The notes under the pieces: model-generated
What the model was told of the DNA's origin: nothing
Seen by the model: the letters and a program-made list of their open reading frames with translations, nothing else
Database searches by the model: none
Source: a virus
Virus genome (UHGV): UHGV-0103875
Reading direction: 5' to 3' (one strand)
DNA: 17,896 bases
Translations under genes and position numbers: made by a program
In this document: in pieces, positions 632-13,608 of the stretch
How the letters are laid out: each line of letters starts with the position of its first letter
Position numbering within the stretch: position 1 is the stretch's first letter

Positions 632-707
632 TGGTGCTGGTTAACGGACTTGACCCGCTACCAATTCGCTTACAAGGCGACCGCTCTACCATTGGAGCTA
701 AACCAGC
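632..707 (-). tRNA. tRNA, anticodon UGU (Thr-type by anticodon)
   Basis: Minus strand: GCTGGTT-TA-GCTC-CAATGGTA-GAGC-G-GTCGC-CTTGTAA-GCGAA-TTGGT-AGCGG-GTCAAGT-CCGTT-AACCAGC-A-CCA. Perfect 7-bp acceptor stem, D-arm with GG, anticodon loop CUUGUAA, encoded CCA. Atypical G at position 54 of the T-loop. Confidence 0.6.
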
Positions 708-712
708 ATGTT

Positions 713-787
713 TGGCGGGACAGCGTGGACTCGAACCACGATAAGAAGGTTAACAGCCTTCCGTAATGACCTTTATACGACTGACCC
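713..787 (-). tRNA. tRNA, anticodon GUU (Asn-type by anticodon)
   Basis: Minus strand: GGGTCAG-TC-GTAT-AAAGGTCA-TTAC-G-GAAGG-CTGTTAA-CCTTC-TTAT-CGTGG-TTCGAGT-CCACG-CTGTCCC-G-CCA. Canonical T-arm GGTTCGAGTCC, anticodon loop CUGUUAA as in E. coli tRNA-Asn, encoded CCA. One U:U mismatch at acceptor pair 4:69. Confidence 0.65.
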
Positions 788-4702: not shown

Positions 4703-7168
4703 TCAGAATCCTCCTTTCTTCTTGGATTGCGGTTCCTCGCGTTCACGGCGGCGCATTTCAGCAGACTGTTGGTCTGTGTCATAAATAGCGCCATTTGCCT
4801 GAATGCAATACACCGTGCCGGTATTGCCATGACGATTGAGACGAAGGATTAGTTCGGTTTCACCAGGTGGAACACTGTCATCAAAAGCACCTTCACGATG
4901 GATCCCCACCCAATAATCGCAATCCTGTTCAATCTGCCCTGTATCTCGTGAGTCACTTGGTAATGGGCGTTTATTGGTTCGGCTTTCCAGTGCGCGGTTA
5001 AGCTGTGTCAGAAGCACAACAACGCAATCAAGCTCTTTGGCAAGGTTCTTCAGTCCTTTGGTGATCATGCCGTAAGCAAGGTCGTTGCGATCGGCCTTTT
5101 CAGCGGTCATTAGTGTCAGGTAATCGACCAGAATCATGCCAACACATCCTTTTTCTCGCTTGATTCGACGGCTTTCGCTGACGATTTGAGCCAGAGATAA
5201 TCCCGGCGTGTCGTCGATGTAAAGCATGTCGATTTCACTCAAGCGATTGGCTGTTTCGATCGCCCTGTTGAAGTCACCATCGTAATCACCCTGATAGCCG
5301 TCATCAGCGTCATTTGTCGCCGGAAGGTAAAAAATATTCGGGTTAACACCAGACTTCTGCCCTACCAGTTTTTCCAGTATCTGGTCACCTGGCATTTCAA
5401 GGCTGAACATCAGAGCGGGCTTTTTCTCATGCACTGCGCAGTTGATTGCCATCTGGCTGTATAGCGTGGTGTTGTGGGTTAGAATGTATCCGTCAGTTGC
5501 ATACAAATGTCTCTCGTGGGATACCATGATGCAAATGCACTCTTCACGTCCAATATACTCAACCGACGTGATAACAGGCGCACTTGTTTTGATGCGTTTT
5601 GCAGTGAATTTTTGCTTCAGGCGTGGAGATTTTATGTGTGATAGAACCTCATCAGGCAACCTGATTGCGCAAATATGGGCATCCATACCTTTGCGCATTT
5701 CTCCCTTATAACTGAATTTCGGCTCCTGTTTGGTTGTCATACGACACACGCCACCAAGAGAATGCACCAGCCGCTTTACACCATCTGACAGGAACTTGCT
5801 TGCCGAGCTAAAGCGCAGGGCATTATTTCCTTCAACCCAACCATCGGTTTCAAGTAATCCGCATAGAACATCAATACGAGTTTGCTTATCAGCAGAAAAA
5901 ATAATATCCGGGATAATTTTAATCTCTGACATCCGGCCGTAGATACCAAGCCGTTGCATAACCCGCGTAAGAGATAATTTGCGGCTAAACTTGTGAGATA
6001 GGGAGTAATCGCAGCCAGAAACATGCCTGACTTCAATATCGTCACCCACTTCAGATCTTACTCGCTCAATGATGTATGGTTCCGTCATGCTGATTCGTGG
6101 CGTACCTGCAAGATTTCCATCGCCAAGTAACGCACCTAACAGCCATGGGCTAATCCCTAAATCAACAGGCAATCCGAAGTCACCGCTAATACCAGGAACA
6201 TGAATGCGGCTTTGATAGCGAACGCATTCCATCATGTCCCGTAGGCGGCAGGTGTCTACAACATCAACGCCACCGGTAATACGGTTACTATGAATTTCCC
6301 ACAAATGATCATCCGCGCAATCAACGGTTCTTCCGTCAGAGAACGTAACTCGGTAAATATCTCGCTCCCCTTGAGGAAAAACTCCAGACACGAATGATGG
6401 TTGTCCATCCACTGATGCTAGGGAATCTCCAACACATACGTCACGAAATGTTGTCCATGAACCATCAGCAAGCAAAATGCGTGAATTAAGCGGTTGCGCT
6501 TTCCCCATCTTAGGGCGAGCGCCAATGACGAACAGAGAGCCTTTCACCAGACCTTTCGGTGACAGCATCCTGTCCAGAGATGGGATCCCTGTGCTCATTC
6601 CTCGTTGTTCGCCTGACGGGTCAAATCGCTTCTCAAGGTCGCTAACCCAGTCTTCCATGACCTCACCAAATGAGCGAAGGCCGCGACGCGATCCGGTTTT
6701 TGCATGGTCTGTCAGTTGCGTGAAAATCGCCTGAATAGCTTCGTACTTCTGCGTCGCAGTCATTCCGTTGCGGGAATAGAGCAATTCCGTCGCTTCAGTC
6801 ATGCGGTTGATGGCGTAGCGTTCCATTGCGGTTTCGCGAACCTGCATTGCATAGGCAACGATGTTTGCGGCGCTTGCCGTGTTCTTTGCGATCTCAGCGA
6901 TATAAGCAAAACCGCCAACAGACGCCGTTAACGATTTACGCTCCAGTTCACCGAAAAGCGTCAGGCCATCTACTGGCTTTTGCTCCCGGTGCATTCTGGT
7001 TATTTCTTCGAAAAGGATTTTGTGTGGTCGGCTGTAAAATGAATCAGGCTTCAGCATCGCCAGAACTTTCTGGACGCGCTCACTGCTGTCATCATCCAGA
7101 AGCAATCCACCAATCACCGCCTGCTCTGCCTCGATGCTATGGGGCGGCGCATAAAAATTATCGGTCAT
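4703..7168 (-). CDS. DnaB-family replicative helicase (P22 gp12-like, replaces lambda P) interrupted by an intein; ORF track gives a GTG start at 7183, first ATG is at 7168
   Basis: N-terminus PPHSIEAEQAVIGGLLLDD…FYSRPHKILFEE…VGGFAYIAEIAKNTASAANI is colinear with remembered E. coli DnaB. Walker A GARPKMGK is split from TTLYSQMAINCAV…MFSLEMPG by 343 residues. C-terminal half has DnaB motifs (ILVDYLTLM, LTQLNRALESR, GQIEQDCDYW). Confidence 0.85.
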   Translation of the reverse strand: MTDNFYAPPHSIEAEQAVIGGLLLDDDSSERVQKVLAMLKPDSFYSRPHKILFEEITRMHREQKPVDGLTLFGELERKSLTASVGGFAYIAEIAKNTASAANIVAYAMQVRETAMERYAINRMTEATELLYSRNGMTATQKYEAIQAIFTQLTDHAKTGSRRGLRSFGEVMEDWVSDLEKRFDPSGEQRGMSTGIPSLDRMLSPKGLVKGSLFVIGARPKMGKAQPLNSRILLADGSWTTFRDVCVGDSLASVDGQPSFVSGVFPQGERDIYRVTFSDGRTVDCADDHLWEIHSNRITGGVDVVDTCRLRDMMECVRYQSRIHVPGISGDFGLPVDLGISPWLLGALLGDGNLAGTPRISMTEPYIIERVRSEVGDDIEVRHVSGCDYSLSHKFSRKLSLTRVMQRLGIYGRMSEIKIIPDIIFSADKQTRIDVLCGLLETDGWVEGNNALRFSSASKFLSDGVKRLVHSLGGVCRMTTKQEPKFSYKGEMRKGMDAHICAIRLPDEVLSHIKSPRLKQKFTAKRIKTSAPVITSVEYIGREECICIMVSHERHLYATDGYILTHNTTLYSQMAINCAVHEKKPALMFSLEMPGDQILEKLVGQKSGVNPNIFYLPATNDADDGYQGDYDGDFNRAIETANRLSEIDMLYIDDTPGLSLAQIVSESRRIKREKGCVGMILVDYLTLMTAEKADRNDLAYGMITKGLKNLAKELDCVVVLLTQLNRALESRTNKRPLPSDSRDTGQIEQDCDYWVGIHREGAFDDSVPPGETELILRLNRHGNTGTVYCIQANGAIYDTDQQSAEMRRREREEPQSKKKGGF
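5471..6499 (-). mobile_element. Intein (343 aa) with LAGLIDADG homing-endonuclease domain, inserted in the helicase P-loop; candidate class 3 (Ala1, W-C-T triad)
   Basis: Insert begins AQPLNSRILLADGSW immediately after GARPKMGK and ends …ATDGYILTHN followed by Thr (HN/T C-terminal splice junction). Two LAGLIDADG-type motifs inside (WLLGALLGDGNL and LCGLLETDGWV). Block B has …DDHLW, block F …CICIMV, block G GYILTHN, consistent with a Trp/Cys/Thr class 3 arrangement. Flanks rejoin to GARPKMGK-TT, restoring a canonical GKT P-loop. Confidence 0.75.
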
Positions 7169-8057
7169 CGTGTTCACCCTCACGAACTTTCAGGTAGGTA
7201 TTATCGTTAAGCAGGAAATCAAATCCCTTTTTGTGCCAGACGGTTCCGCGCTGATGGTTTTGGCGCTCTTCGAACATCCATCGGCAATTTTCGCCTACGT
7301 AGCTCAAATAATTTCTCCAGTCCTGCATCGTGAACCCATGCCCGTCAAGCTGGCGGGTTATCACTCCGGCTTTGCGCCAGAACGTTCGGATCTGGTTTTT
7401 ACGCTTGTCATTCAGTGCGCGGATTTTTGGCGCTTCAGGAAGGATTTCGTGGTAAGCATCGACAACATCCTGACAGCTAACGGAAGGTTTTTTCTTGTCA
7501 GACTTTTTGTCTGCTGCGGTACTCTCTAATACGTCAGTATTAGAGATAATATTATTATATTCTTTATCTGTGGTAATTTGCTGGTAATCTGCTGGTACAG
7601 TATTGCTTGCAGGCATTGGTATTGCTGGCTTTGAGGTGGTAATTTGCTGGTAATCTGCTGGTACAAAATTTGACTGATAATCGTCATATTTCTCTACCGA
7701 GAAAACTGAGAATTTACCGTGTGAAACCCAGTCAATCATGCCGAGTTTTTTGAACTTTCTAAGCAGGTACTGAACGCGATCTGGTTTGAGTCCTGTTTCA
7801 AACGCCAGAGAGTTTCTACCGCCAAGTAGCTTCCCTCTGCCTACCAGAATTTCTCCTGCGTCAGTCATTACATACTCAGGCGTATGCTTTGCTTTGAGGA
7901 TTAAGTGAACCCACAGATGCGCAGCTTCTGCGTCCTTGTAAAACGGCACATCCATAATTTTACGGTGCAGCAAGGCATACCCCTTACCGCTGCTTTGATG
8001 CGGTTGTTGTAGCCTTCTGGCCTCTCTGGCTTCGGCTAGATTAGATATGTTACTCAT
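7158..8057 (-). CDS. Replication initiator (lambda O / P22 gp18 functional analogue) containing the origin iterons
   Basis: 299 aa; position between cII and the helicase. Central peptide repeat [10 protein letters not shown] x2 is encoded by the DNA iterons. RBS AGGAGAAAGG before ATG 8057. Confidence 0.7.
7541..7667. repeat. Candidate replication origin: direct iterons (TGCTGGTAA/C-type, two copies of a ~30-bp unit GTGGTAATTTGCTGGTAATCTGCTGGTACA) with adjacent AT-rich tract
   Basis: Unit GGTAATTTGCTGGTAATCTGCTGGTACA occurs at ~7573-7600 and ~7638-7665; each holds two TGCTGGTA sub-repeats; a degenerate copy ATTGCTGGC at ~7621. AT-rich stretch AGAGATAATATTATTATATTCTTTATCTG at 7541-7569 lies on the downstream side in the O reading direction, as in lambda ori. 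Confidence 0.65.
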
Positions 8058-8230: not shown

Positions 8231-8509
8231 TCAGGCCTCGAAGAATTCGCCGTTCTTCGGGGCTTTTTCTTTTGTCAGCATTCTGGCTACTTGCTTAGCC
8301 AGTTCCGCCAACTCCTCGTCTTCAACACCCCATTCCAGCACAGCCAGAAGCATGGCCATCTTTGGGATAAAGCTGTCTTTCCATCGCGAAATTTGCGATT
8401 CATTAATCCCTAACGCGTCGGCAACCTTTCGCTGACCACGTACAGCAATTCGATTCAGGATGTTGCTTGTAATTGCATTCGCTTTCTTGCGAGTACTTGT
8501 AAGTTGCAT
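8231..8509 (-). CDS. cII: CII-like transcriptional activator (divergent from lambda CII); ORF-track N-terminal extension rejected
   Basis: From ATG 8509: [66 protein letters not shown]… shares SQISRWK and LLAVLEWGV with lambda CII. RBS AAGGAAATA upstream. Confidence 0.8.
8244..8282 (+). terminator. Plus-strand intrinsic terminator inside the cII 3' end; candidate terminator of an oop-like antisense RNA
   Basis: GCCTCGAAGAA-TTCGCCG-TTCTTCGGGGC followed by TTTTTCTTTT on the plus strand, antisense to the cII C-terminus, positionally equivalent to the lambda oop terminator. Confidence 0.5.
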
Positions 8510-8589
8510 ATGTAAGTATTTCCTTAGATAACAATTGATTGAATGTATGCAAATAAATGCATACACCATAGGTGTGGTTTAATTTGATG

Positions 8590-8620
8590 CCCTTTTTCAG
8601 GGCTGGAATGTGTAAGAGCG
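8590..8620 (-). promoter_or_regulatory. nutR (boxA CGCTCTTA, boxB GCCCTGAAAAAGGGC) for N antitermination
   Basis: Plus strand carries GCCCTTTTTCAGGGC (8590-8604) and TAAGAGCG (8613-8620), the reverse complements of lambda nutR boxB and boxA, between cro and cII. Confidence 0.85.
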
Positions 8621-8627
8621 TGGTTAT

Positions 8628-8837
<210 letters not shown>

Positions 8838-8854
8838 TTAGTACATGCAACCAT

Positions 8855-8918
8855 TATCACCGCCAGAGGTAAAATAGTCAACACGCACGGTGTTAGATAT
8901 TTATCCCTTGCGGTGATA
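8855..8918. promoter_or_regulatory. Lambda right operator OR1-OR2-OR3 with divergent promoters PR (toward cro) and PRM (toward cI)
   Basis: OR1 TATCACCGCCAGAGGTA (8855-8871), OR2 CAACACGCACGGTGTTA (8879-8895), OR3 TATCCCTTGCGGTGATA (8902-8918); 17-bp lambda operator half-site consensus TATCACCG. Confidence 0.9.
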
Positions 8919-8925
8919 GATTTAA

Positions 8926-9642
<717 letters not shown>

Positions 9643-9792
9643 TGGGCAAGGTGTTCTGGTCGGCGCATAGCTGGTGAAAAAATTATTTAATGCGGTGTAT
9701 TGGCTGATTGTAACCCCATGTAACATCTTGCCGTCACCATTTCGGTGGTTAGATTTTTAATAAAAAAAAACAAATGTATAGCAAGGTTTTTT

Positions 9793-10272
9793 ATGGATAA
9801 AATTAATTACCCACCCCTGTTTGAGCCAGGGTTCCATGACATGGATGAAGCTGGATTAAAATCGTATTGTGTCGATTGCTTTCCTTCATCATCCAGGCGA
9901 GGCATGCTATACTGTAATTTTATACAGCTACTCGAATCTATTCGAGAATTATCTGCTCAATATGGCTGTTTTACAGAAATATGGGTTGATGGTTCATACA
10001 CCACGTCTAAACCAGAGCCTGATGATATTGATATTTTGTTGGTATGTGACTATAGCAATATAAACTCAATACCTGTCATGCTTCGGGGCCGCGTCGATAA
10101 TTTGCTTGACCGAAACTACATCAAACAAAACTACAAAATTGATGTCCTACTACTCATGAAGAATTTAGATGACCCTAACTATGATTATGAGTACTGGCGT
10201 AGTTACTGGCGCGGTTGGTTTGGTTTTGATCGCAGTGAAAACCCGAAAGGGTTAGTGAGGATTTTTTTATGA
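9793..10272 (+). CDS. Hypothetical protein, gene A of the rex-slot cassette (~159 aa); possible minimal nucleotidyltransferase-fold protein
   Basis: First ATG at 9793 with AAGG six nt upstream; ORF track extends to GTG 9745. Contains WVDGSYTTSKPEPDDIDILLV, fitting the Pol-beta NTase pattern hG[GS]-x9-13-DhDh. Also CVDC…C. AT-rich compared with the flanking cI. Not RexA. Confidence 0.55.
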   Translation: MDKINYPPLFEPGFHDMDEAGLKSYCVDCFPSSSRRGMLYCNFIQLLESIRELSAQYGCFTEIWVDGSYTTSKPEPDDIDILLVCDYSNINSIPVMLRGRVDNLLDRNYIKQNYKIDVLLLMKNLDDPNYDYEYWRSYWRGWFGFDRSENPKGLVRIFL

Positions 10273-11201
10273 ATGATAAATCAATGTTTAAAAATTGCGA
10301 TAAACGCATTGATTTCATTCAAAAAGAAGTCGATGCAATGAAGCAAAACAAAACCAGGTCCTTTGCTGACATGCTTCTTTATCGCTCCATGGATTCTCAT
10401 CTGAGCGATTTGAAGGCCGAAAAATTAAAGCAAGATAGTCGGCACCCACTTATCGATTTTTTTGAGCTGCGGCTGAAAGGCTCTGAGGTTGACTTTGGCT
10501 CTATTCCTTTAGAGCTGCTTGGGGCTATTTCAACAAATCTTGCAGCGCTAATACAAAGAGCAACACACAAAATTGCCTCAGGCAAGGACTCAAAAAAAGT
10601 TCCCTACGACGTGAAAAGCTCCTTAAACCTCAGGCTGGCTGATTTATCCCCTGGGTCTACAAAATTGGGCGTCACCTTCTCTACAGGAATAGCAGAATTA
10701 GTAGAAACAGTACCCAGCAAGGCTGTAAAAGGCATATTCGATTTGTTGTTAAGCGATGACGACAACAACTTCATGAATCACGTCGCTGAAATTGGATACA
10801 ATTCCACTGTAAGCCTTAAGAGAATCGTAGAGGAATGCGATAAACACAACTTAACATTTGATGCAAGTTGGACCGGTCCATTTAGTAATGGCACCAAGGT
10901 GGCAACTATTGACTCCAATAAAATTAAGTACTTGGTGAGTAGACTTACATCAACCATTTCATCCCCTCCCATTACTGAAACGGTTACAGGCGAACTGGTC
11001 GTTCTATCCAAATATGGGAAGCTGGAGCTTGATGTTGGTGGTGAACATTTAAAGGCTTCCTATCCGATTGAAATGCTAGATTTAATACAAAAAAAACACA
11101 AGGTCGGACAGATTGTTTCTCTTTTAGTGGAGACTACTGAGATTCACAATGATCGCATAGGTCTGTACCGTAAAAACCATCTTGTTAAATCGGTTCTTTA
11201 A
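10269..11201 (+). CDS. Hypothetical protein, gene B of the rex-slot cassette (310 aa), no recognised domain
   Basis: ATG overlaps the gene A stop (ATGA). Soluble-looking, Lys/Ser/Leu-rich, AT-rich codons. No RexB-like transmembrane pattern and no HEPN Rx4-6H motif found by eye. Confidence 0.6.
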   Translation: MNDKSMFKNCDKRIDFIQKEVDAMKQNKTRSFADMLLYRSMDSHLSDLKAEKLKQDSRHPLIDFFELRLKGSEVDFGSIPLELLGAISTNLAALIQRATHKIASGKDSKKVPYDVKSSLNLRLADLSPGSTKLGVTFSTGIAELVETVPSKAVKGIFDLLLSDDDNNFMNHVAEIGYNSTVSLKRIVEECDKHNLTFDASWTGPFSNGTKVATIDSNKIKYLVSRLTSTISSPPITETVTGELVVLSKYGKLELDVGGEHLKASYPIEMLDLIQKKHKVGQIVSLLVETTEIHNDRIGLYRKNHLVKSVL

Positions 11202-11207
11202 TATCTC

Positions 11208-11234
11208 ACCCGGCCACCGCGCCGGGTTTTCTTT
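11208..11234 (+). terminator. Rho-independent terminator closing the cI-cassette transcript (tIMM-equivalent)
   Basis: ACCCGGC-CACCGC-GCCGGGT followed by TTTTCTTTG immediately after the gene B stop. Confidence 0.7.
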
Positions 11235-11395
11235 GCCTCACGATCTCCCCACCTAAAAAAACATAACTCATTGTATTTATTGAAAAATAAATAGATACAA
11301 CTCACTAAACATAGCAATTCAGATCTCTCACCTACCAAACAATGCCCCCCTGCAAAAAATAAATTCATATAAAAAACATACAGATAACCATCTGC

Positions 11396-11458
11396 GGTGA
11401 TAAATTATCTCTGGCGGTGTTGACATAAATACCACTGGCGGTGATACTGAGCACATCA
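11396..11458 (+). promoter_or_regulatory. Lambda left operator OL3-OL2-OL1 with PL promoter (-35 TTGACA 11430-11435, -10 GATACT 11453-11458) directed toward N
   Basis: OL3 AACCATCTGCGGTGATA (11396-11412), OL2 TATCTCTGGCGGTGTTG (11416-11432), OL1 TACCACTGGCGGTGATA (11440-11456); 17-bp spacing between -35 and -10. Confidence 0.9.
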
Positions 11459-12025: not shown

Positions 12026-12496
12026 ATGACAAAATCATGGAGTGTACCTTTTCCTGAATCAGAAACTGAACATGATGGAATGCCTGTTTTCTGGAGATTC
12101 CAGGCGACAGTTGAAGAAGATGGAATCAAAATATTCGCACTTCAATATATAGCTTTTCATCAGACAGAGCATTATGCATGGTTGGTTCCTGCGCATTGGA
12201 TTGTTAATTTTAAACCAGCACCAAATCAGTGGTTACAGGAATGGAAACAAAAGAGAAATAGATATGCAATTAAGAAAGTAGCAAAAAATGCAGAAAGATC
12301 TTTTGCATTCCCAACGAAGAAACTTGCCATTGAAAGTTTATTGCGCCGGAAGAAATACCATTTAATGAGAATCAAACAAGATTTGGCTGTTGCATCAACT
12401 CTTGTTGATGGGATGAAGAATATTGATACATCAACACCAGATATTGAATATAACTTTGGACACAACCAAGAAACAGAAAATTGGGTATTTTATTAG
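12026..12496 (+). CDS. Hypothetical protein (156 aa) directly downstream of N, in the lambda sieB/ral position
   Basis: Starts 8 nt after the N stop. AT-rich, Trp-rich (WSVPF, FWRF, WLVPAHWIVNF, WLQEWKQK); no recognised family. Confidence 0.6.
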   Translation: MTKSWSVPFPESETEHDGMPVFWRFQATVEEDGIKIFALQYIAFHQTEHYAWLVPAHWIVNFKPAPNQWLQEWKQKRNRYAIKKVAKNAERSFAFPTKKLAIESLLRRKKYHLMRIKQDLAVASTLVDGMKNIDTSTPDIEYNFGHNQETENWVFY

Positions 12497-12639
12497 TACA
12501 AATAAGCACTGTGTATTCATTCCAACGAGTGAATACACGGAGCAATGTCGCTCGTAACTAAACAGGAGCCGACTTGTTCTGATTATTGGAAATCTTCTTT
12601 GCCCTCCAGTGTGAGGGCAATTTTTTTAACGGGGGAAAT

Positions 12640-13608
12640 ATGAGTGAAGTAACAGATTTAGTTGTTATTGAAAAAGCAAATGCAATGACTGTATTTCAGT
12701 CTGCCGATCAGATTGAAGAAATCCTTCAAAAGGTTGAACGTGAAGTTATGTCCTTTGTGCCTGATATCACAACGGCAAAGGGAAGAAAGGAGATCGCTTC
12801 TCTGGCGTATAAAGTTGCGCAGACGAAAACATATCTCGATGGTCTTGGCAAAGACCTTGTTGCTGAACTGAAGGAAATTCCAAAGCTAATTGATGCTAAC
12901 CGCAAGACAGTGCGTGATCGCCTTGATGAGCTGAAAGCCAAGGCACGCCAGCCTCTTACTGATTATGAGGAAGAACAGGCGCGGATTAAAGCCGAAGAAG
13001 AAGCTAAGGCAGCAGCTGAAGCTCTCGCAAAGCAAATTGAGTCTGACCATGAAATAGCGATTTTGATGGATCGCGAATTTGACCGCCAAAGAGAAGAGGC
13101 AAGACTCAAAGCGGAGCAGGAAAAGCGAGAGCATGAAGAACGCTTAAAAAGAGAAGCTGAAGAGAAAGCCAGAGCTGAAGCCGAAGCAAAGGCAAAAGCC
13201 GAAATTGAAGCAGCAGCAAGGCGAGAAGCAGAAGCTAAGGCCGCAGCGGAACGTGCAGAGCGTGAACGCATTGAAGCCGAGCAACGAGCACAGCGCGAAG
13301 CAAAAGAGGCAGCAGAACGAGCTGAAAGAGAAAAGCAGGCAGCAATTGAAGCAGAACGCCGAAAAGCACAGGAGGAGGCAGAACGAATCCGGCGCGAGGC
13401 TGAAGCAAAAGAGCAAGCCAGAATAGCAGAAGAAAAAAGAATCAAGGACGAAGAAGAGCGTAGAGCAAAGGATAAAGCTCACCGGAGAGAAGTAAATAAC
13501 AAAATACTTGCTGACCTTATCAAGGTTGGCGCATCAGAAGATGTTGCTAAAAATATCATAATAGCCATCGCAAAAGGCGAAGTATTCGCAACAAAAATAA
13601 CCTACTAA
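12640..13608 (+). CDS. Highly charged coiled-coil protein (~322 aa) with long E/A/K/R-rich repeat region
   Basis: Start ATG 12640 preceded by GGGGGAA; the ORF-track N-terminal extension is rejected. Central ~180 aa are quasi-repeats of AEAKAKAEIEAAARREAEAKAAAERAERE… flanked by ordinary N- and C-terminal segments. Confidence 0.6.
   Translation: MSEVTDLVVIEKANAMTVFQSADQIEEILQKVEREVMSFVPDITTAKGRKEIASLAYKVAQTKTYLDGLGKDLVAELKEIPKLIDANRKTVRDRLDELKAKARQPLTDYEEEQARIKAEEEAKAAAEALAKQIESDHEIAILMDREFDRQREEARLKAEQEKREHEERLKREAEEKARAEAEAKAKAEIEAAARREAEAKAAAERAERERIEAEQRAQREAKEAAERAEREKQAAIEAERRKAQEEAERIRREAEAKEQARIAEEKRIKDEEERRAKDKAHRREVNNKILADLIKVGASEDVAKNIIIAIAKGEVFATKITY

Follow-up and report, generated by a model that had tools for sequence, protein, structure and literature searches.

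In phage lambda, the interval between the repressor gene cI and the leftward operators and promoter (OL/PL) holds rexA and rexB. What fills this interval in a lambdoid prophage that lacks both genes, and might the replacement serve a similar purpose? We addressed this question in UHGV virus genome UHGV-0103875, a stretch of 17,896 nucleotides (nt) that we call the window. It represents a mosaic prophage of the lambdoid type in the orientation opposite to the lambda map, and its rexAB slot contains a mobile gene pair of the PADLOC candidate family PDC-M63, placed within the repressor operon in the order cI, cassette, terminator, and OL/PL. The two genes, here called A and B, encode a predicted minimal nucleotidyltransferase (NTase) and a predicted soluble partner with an OB fold. 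The original prediction for this locus, made from the sequence alone, had proposed the cassette as a candidate for an undescribed defense or abortive-infection system.

A cargo swap in the rexAB slot

The slot and its borders comprise the following features, in window coordinates:

8853-8918, upstream of cI: OR operators and PR (promoter/operator scan)
8929-9642 (+): cI, a 237-amino-acid (aa) open reading frame (ORF) that is lambda cI, inside the block of 99% lambda identity
9643-9673 (+): post-cI linker of 31 nt, the final lambda-homologous bases (lambda alignment)
9674-9792 (+): AT-rich cassette leader of 119 nt, with Shine-Dalgarno sequence AAGG at 9784-9787
9793-10272 (+): gene A, 159 aa (DUF6932; PADLOC PDC-M63A)
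10269-11201 (+): gene B, 310 aa (PADLOC PDC-M63B)
11208-11234 (+): intrinsic terminator, with a stem at 11208-11227 and a T run (terminator scan)
11387-11448 (+): OL operators and PL, the far border of the slot (operator repeats at 11387-11446)

Alignment to lambda gave 99% identity over positions 8507 to 9673, covering cII-cro-cI, with homology ending 31 nt past the cI stop. Homology returned at 11208, which corresponds to the final base of the lambda rexB stop codon, and extended to 11992 at 88% identity. Between these two junctions, lambda 35826 to 37195 (rexA and rexB) has been swapped for 1,534 bp of foreign DNA (9674 to 11207). The terminator positionally matches the sequence directly downstream of lambda rexB, its first base being the base at which lambda homology resumes, and PL (TTGACA-17-GATACT) follows at 11420 to 11448, with OL1 at 11430 to 11446. 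The cassette replaces rexAB exactly: it fills the same slot, lies on the same strand as cI, and ends at the shared terminator.

Sequence scans and the lambda alignment confirmed the landmarks on which the original prediction was built, namely, the end of cI at 9642, the terminator at 11208 to 11234, and the coordinates of OL/PL. The two genes on the cI strand were likewise recovered at the predicted lengths, with a stop/start overlap (ATGA) at 10269 to 10272. Alternative starts for gene A are present at 9745 (GTG) and 9775 (ATG), and homologues begin at the M(D/E)K encoded from 9793. The GC content of the non-lambda segment (39.5%) is lower than that of cI (45.2%), as had been noted, and than that of the window (46.1%). 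The claim that the cargo is not RexA/RexB was borne out in hhalign comparisons, in which the A and B profiles had probabilities of 0.2% and 0.1% against lambda RexA and 2.2% and 0.05% against lambda RexB. Homology of either protein to RexA or RexB is ruled out at these values (≤2.2%).

Membership in the candidate family PDC-M63

The original prediction regarded the pair as undescribed and belonging to no named family, which proved incorrect. The gene A protein matched the PDC-M63A hidden Markov model (HMM) PDLC04744 (E = 1.8e-41; residues 1 to 158 on profile positions 1 to 148 of 152), and the gene B protein matched the PDC-M63B model PDLC04749 (E = 7.5e-45; residues 23 to 304 on profile positions 20 to 300 of 309) as well as five more PDC-M63B models. 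With near full-length matches for both proteins, same-strand adjacency, and the A-then-B order, we found no family-level difference between the cassette and PDC-M63. Every relative tested also matched PDC-M63 (40/40 for gene A and 68/68 for gene B). Besides PDC-M63, the PADLOC scan matched only PDC-M32A and, weakly, DrmC, and in PHROGs the proteins fell into families 9194 and 6603, both of unknown function. The enterobacterial prophage clade scores 151 bits, compared with an E value of 2.9e-138 for the best matches, and the lower HMM score therefore marks it as a divergent branch of PDC-M63.

The PDC set consists of 145 predicted "guilt-by-embedding" candidates located within BREX, DISARM, or type I restriction-modification (RM) loci; PDC-M63, itself a prediction, is its cassette CAS_00189 (Payne et al., bioRxiv 10.1101/2024.01.29.577857). 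The pair was also present in a described phage, as mEpX1_042 and mEpX1_041 of mEpX1 are identical to the gene A and gene B proteins, respectively (DNA identity, 99.7%). At ≥99% identity, the cassette occurs in 18 of 5,426 complete E. coli genomes, and the exact A and B proteins are found on at least 1,000 contigs. Members of Enterobacter, Citrobacter, Yersinia, and Kluyvera are included in the 90%-identity clusters of A and B. A literature search gave nothing for DUF6932 or the protein accessions, nothing in the DefensePredictor paper or its supplements, and no paper naming the pair. The pair is already catalogued, hence not undescribed, and represents an unvalidated candidate family.

Gene A, a predicted minimal nucleotidyltransferase

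The protein encoded by gene A matches Pfam DUF6932 (E = 1.7e-24), and some of the 95 homologues found have a precomputed match to NTP_transf_2. Across 40 aligned homologues, G67, S68, K73, D78, and D80 never vary and D117 is conserved in at least 90%, which fits the Pol-beta-type NTase signature hG[GS]...DxD...D. A C-terminal RSYWRGWFGF motif, specific to the gene A family, is almost invariant in the same alignment. In a sequence-profile search of the PDB, the catalytic residues aligned to the GS/DMD/D residues of DNA polymerase beta below significance, and no relative of known structure was found beyond these subthreshold matches. A fold search with the gene A model placed MNT proteins of MNT-HEPN pairs (8xeh_E, 7ae2_B, 1no5_B, and 5yep_A) as the closest structural neighbors. 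By Pfam and the model, the protein is a single NTase domain, without a HEPN-like domain; it is acidic (isoelectric point [pI], 4.7), with a maximum 19-residue hydropathy of 1.25. Motif conservation and fold neighbors both agree with the possible NTase motif that the original prediction had seen in gene A, and they indicate that the protein is a minimal Pol-beta-type NTase with an intact catalytic signature.

Gene B, a predicted OB-fold partner

No Pfam family or NCBIfam match was found for gene B, nor did 68 diverse relatives yield a consistent Pfam match. An exhaustive profile search recovered 268 cluster representatives; among the 150 of these that were listed, nearly all are ~300 to 330 aa long, a few fragments aside. 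The structural model (predicted local distance difference test score, 79.7) contains an N-terminal helical hairpin, central alpha/beta domains, and a C-terminal five-stranded barrel with one helix. In a fold search of the model, the C-terminal ~75 residues (~235 to 310) were assigned to an OB fold, nearest to RuvA domain I, SSB, and RPA, so the original view that gene B lacks any recognizable domain no longer holds. OB folds usually bind nucleic acid. The original prediction of no obvious transmembrane (TM) segment was upheld (maximum 19-residue hydropathy, 1.38), and a reading of gene B as a membrane effector is ruled out by the absence of such a segment. Gene B thus appears, from its model, to encode a soluble partner with an OB fold; the protein is basic (pI, 8.3).

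Among gene B relatives of 20 to 46% identity, Ser130 is the sole invariant residue. It lies in a G129-S130 motif on a loop of low model confidence within the central alpha/beta domains. E/D63, R68, R122, and W201 are also highly conserved, and residues 62 to 146 are shared with the N terminus of the PADLOC candidate protein PDC-M32A. Foldseek against the PDB returned nothing for gene B at E ≤ 0.001. Long, weak alignments to class III cyclase and the Cas10 palm (probability, ≤0.57; root mean square deviation, ~15 Å) were not trusted. The absence of a HEPN Rx4-6H motif, as originally claimed, was only partly correct, since R39-x4-H44 does exist in the window allele; the motif is unconserved, however, with R39 present in 14/33 close and 9/68 distant homologues. 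An assignment of gene B to HEPN was rejected on this basis, the single HEPN_AbiU2 match among the 68 relatives (E = 0.0052) being at noise level.

Conserved order and mobility behind prophage repressors

Gene A lay directly upstream of gene B in 72 of 72 loci from which both were extracted, and the stop and start codons nearly always overlapped. The loci were drawn from 59 IMG/VR viral contigs, seven species genomes, two distant metagenome contigs, two further contigs, phage mEpX1, prophage CX12, and the window. A profile search found the same A-B arrangement in the distant metagenome locus L011, which tblastn had missed, and in three distant metagenome loci, L011 included, the partner was homologous to gene B by profile (E = 1e-32 to 4e-44).

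Immediately upstream of the pair, on the same strand, most phage loci have a prophage repressor gene. Repressors in this position belong to at least 17 S24-type clusters and one helix-turn-helix-only cluster (clusters defined at 70% identity), with Pfam-annotated examples in a Rac-like E. coli prophage and a P22-like Salmonella prophage. The window allele itself (≥98% identical) follows nine repressor types, and alleles only 46 to 55% identical keep the slot behind repressors. The strict A-then-B order, the anchoring behind at least 17 repressor types, and the occurrence of one allele behind nine of them are new here.

The block common to the window, mEpX1, and CX12 starts within the repressor gene, ~30 nt before its 3' end (9612/9616), and extends past the terminator, with right ends at 11245 for mEpX1 and 11283 for CX12. 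The terminator is included, and the leader travels with A and B. A post-cI linker of ~31 to 38 nt is also found in the cassette-free phages HK544, VT1-Sakai, HK639, and phiSTEC801. The linker at 9643 to 9673 is probably a recombination joint common to lambdoid phages with different cargo. Considering the limits of the shared block and the presence of the linker in cassette-free phages, the cassette would therefore have been exchanged by recombination at short conserved joints. The identities of A and B covary (r = 0.88), and at long range, identity is 26% for B and 40% for A. Discordant pairs (80% identity in A with 56% in B; 53% in A with 70% in B) indicate allele shuffling between the two genes.

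Outside phages, the pair adjoins a type I RM system and a YoeB/Phd pair (locus L013) or a large DUF4011 helicase. E. coli prophages with lambda-type cI/cro (L018 to L021) have other cargo in the rex slot between cI and N. Altogether, at least five rex-slot cargos were seen: rexA-rexB, a 311-aa P63C-domain protein, a pair of 93-aa and 183-aa hypothetical proteins, a single 126-aa protein, and the DUF6932 pair. In sister prophages, rexB is sometimes annotated as "ExbB." The position that follows the repressor is a hotspot for cargo and could be useful for mining further lysogen-expressed systems.

Expression of the cassette

The cassette sits in the lysogenic PRM/PRE transcription unit, which begins with cI. 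No promoter scored above the scan threshold in the leader (9674 to 9792), whose predicted RNA fold did not differ significantly from shuffled sequence (z = -0.58), and Rfam gave no structured-RNA match in the cassette. A candidate internal promoter for gene B, a single 9/12 match at 10073 to 10101, was dismissed as within chance expectation. Since the cassette is on the same strand as cI, has a promoter-free leader, and ends at the shared terminator, it is most likely cotranscribed with cI in the lysogen.

Positions 9681 to 9697 of the leader resemble half a lambda operator (core GCGGTG; 76% identity to OL2 across 17 nt). The leader also accompanies non-lambda repressors, so this resemblance is probably due to chance.

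Possible function and rival explanations

Our preferred reading, at about even odds, is that the cassette is expressed in the lysogen and acts in phage exclusion or abortive infection, with a design like that of a toxin-antitoxin (TA) pair. We infer phage exclusion because the slot is that of RexAB in lambda, because the pair persists behind many different repressors, and because its other neighborhoods include RM and TA genes. A defense role for the pair is a reasonable guess.

How such a module might work can be outlined by analogy to MNT-HEPN (type VII) TA systems. The acidic upstream NTase A would restrain the basic effector B by nucleotidylylation, with Ser130, on a loop that is exposed in the model of B, as the candidate nucleotide acceptor. 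Infection would break the control exerted by A and release B, and the released B could then bind phage or host nucleic acid via its OB fold. We favor this type VII-like scheme because A has MNT antitoxins as structural neighbors, A is upstream of and overlaps B, the proteins are acidic and basic, respectively, and B has an invariant hydroxyl on an exposed loop. In one variant, A would be the effector, adding nucleotides to RNA or DNA ends in the manner of MenT and AbiEii, and B the sensor. In another, A would make an oligonucleotide signal that is bound by the OB fold of B, as in Hailong. The more rapid divergence of B is equally compatible with B as sensor and A as effector and with A as a signal synthase.

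Several observations weigh against an exclusion module of this kind. Deletion of PDC-M63AB from a prophage of E. coli NILS69 left infectivity unchanged for 10 virulent phages, and a low-copy clone in K-12 gave no protection against 15 virulent phages. The clone relied on "native upstream sequence"; the upstream sequence of the window allele has no recognizable promoter, and the NILS69 clone may have lacked PRM. The NILS69 allele may differ from that of the window. A weak terminator-like hairpin in the leader (9730 to 9749; terminator scan) might restrict read-through from cI. Gene B has no recognizable toxin or enzymatic domain, and outside the OB fold it has no significant PDB match by sequence profile or fold, while modification of B by A is a step that we infer by analogy. 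Finally, the upstream neighbor is not always a repressor: it is a DinI-like gene in loci L004 and L043 and an ImuB/DnaE2 cluster in L011. These minority contexts may point to a link with DNA-damage biology.

The negative NILS69 results, the sole functional tests of the pair, would be expected if the cassette were a selfish addiction (TA) module or a neutral moron that stabilizes the prophage or its immunity region, or simply hitchhikes, without anti-phage activity. The TA-like appearance of the pair (overlapping genes, of which the upstream one encodes a small acidic protein and the downstream one a larger basic protein), its movement among immunity regions at very high identity, and its proximity to the YoeB/Phd TA pair in L013 are all consistent with such a module. 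On the other hand, the deletion and cloning study did not report toxicity, the embedding in RM, BREX, and DISARM loci is what underlies the PADLOC call, and the retention of the slot behind repressors by alleles of 46 to 55% identity argues for a selected function in the lysogen. We regard an addiction module or moron without anti-phage activity as unlikely, while recognizing that TA-type and defense roles are compatible and not mutually exclusive. It is less probable still that the pair has an SOS, DNA-damage, or phage life cycle role, in which a single-stranded DNA (ssDNA)-binding OB protein and an NTase act at the ends or gaps of DNA or modulate prophage induction. Such a role would fit the similarity of the OB fold to RuvA domain I, SSB, and RPA and the recurrence of SOS-linked neighbors, i.e., the LexA-like S24 repressors and the genes upstream in L004, L043, and L011. 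However, S24 proteins are what lambdoid phages ordinarily use as repressors, DinI-like genes occur commonly as morons in prophages, and the other contexts of the pair are RM, TA, and helicase islands. Moreover, sister prophages lack the pair and carry unrelated cargo, which argues that it is accessory and outside the induction circuit.

A counter-defense function, by which the NTase or the OB protein would neutralize host immunity to the benefit of the prophage by sequestering or modifying nucleotide signals or nucleic acid triggers, seems very improbable. The genes are phage borne, and anti-defense genes do include nucleotide-handling enzymes and nucleic acid binders. Yet the pair is on the repressor strand upstream of a terminator rather than in the early lytic PL/PR operons usual for anti-defense genes, and chromosomal copies lie next to or inside RM loci with no phage present.

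Returning to phage exclusion, a more specific and more doubtful proposal is that PDC-M63 is a real immune system with a new mechanism, in which a minimal NTase controls an OB-fold effector either covalently, via Ser130, or by an oligonucleotide signal. It would reside in the repressor operons of many temperate phages of enterobacteria, and its main targets would be superinfecting temperate phages or phages that expose ssDNA. Such a target range would explain the negative panels of virulent phages. The pair is a worthwhile experimental target, in particular against temperate phages and under PRM-driven expression. If it is inactive, it would be a cautionary case for "guilt-by-association" defense calls.

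Other features of the window

A DnaB-like replicative helicase of 826 aa is encoded at 4703 to 7183 (-), with an insert of ~341 aa at about 5474 to 6496 that splits the Walker A loop (GARPKMGK/AQPLNS...ILTHN/TTLYS). The insert has a LAGLIDADG_3 match and a PADLOC homing-endonuclease match, and it is missing from the helicase gene of the CX12 prophage, which is otherwise 97 to 98% identical. From its sequence, the insert appears to be an intein that contains a homing endonuclease. Its first residue is Ala, its last two are HN, and Thr comes next, which resembles class 3 DnaB inteins.

Directly after gene N, a 156-aa ORF (12026 to 12496, +) lies in the lowest-GC stretch of the window (~35 to 37%); it is an accessory gene of the early-left PL operon, without a Pfam or PADLOC match. 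The adjacent region contains a 340-aa ORF (12586 to 13608, +) that consists largely of E/A/K/R-rich, probably coiled-coil sequence and has no Pfam match. It explains the extreme AT skew at 13000 to 13600, which reaches 0.62. Where the record of phage vB_EcoP-683R2 matches the window, its annotated features include a "TolA protein." Two tandem tRNA genes are located on the late-region side, at 635 to 787 (-); the CX12 prophage has tRNA-Thr and tRNA-Asn at the corresponding place.

Comparison with known systems

CBASS involves a CD-NTase of about 300 aa or more together with an effector gene, and the pair contains no such protein. BstA is a prophage-encoded abortive-infection protein that adjoins the repressor. 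It is an accessory defense gene of temperate phages that is expressed in lysogens, as the cassette probably is, but it is a single protein without an NTase, and no similarity to it appeared in the PADLOC scan.

Other systems combine an NTase with a second protein. The defense system Hailong consists of an ion-channel partner, HalA, and an NTase carrying a HEPN-like domain, HalB (PMC13586616). The cassette shares the two-gene layout but differs in that B is soluble, without TM segments, and A is a 159-aa NTase without a HEPN-like domain. The product of the Hailong NTase is an oligonucleotide bound by the partner, and an OB fold could do likewise. The AbiE/MenAT (DUF1814) systems, some of which act in abortive infection, also have two genes that include a Pol-beta-type NTase. 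In comparison, the gene A product is only half as large and has DUF6932, not DUF1814, as its sole Pfam family, the gene order is reversed, and no AbiEi-type antitoxin lies upstream, the upstream gene being a phage repressor; PADLOC gave no AbiE match. A similar layout is seen in MNT-HEPN (MntA-HepT, type VII TA), in which an acidic NTase is encoded upstream of, and overlaps, a basic partner. Gene A has the minimal Pol-beta-type organization of these NTases, with GS...DxD and a third acidic residue, but has additional N-terminal elements and the RSYWRGWFGF motif, and B has an OB fold rather than HEPN.

Lambda RexAB is the counterpart by position. Both are two-gene cargos downstream of cI in the same slot, on the same strand, with the same flanking joints and terminator. 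The proteins differ: RexB is an ion channel with membrane segments, of which B has none, and A is an NTase by prediction, which RexA is not. If active, the pair would be a compact 1.5-kb, two-protein exclusion system, consisting of a minimal NTase and an OB-fold partner, whose architecture matches no characterized system. Such a pair would further be a natural stand-in for RexAB function in lambda's own immunity region and could be tested directly by a swap into lambda.

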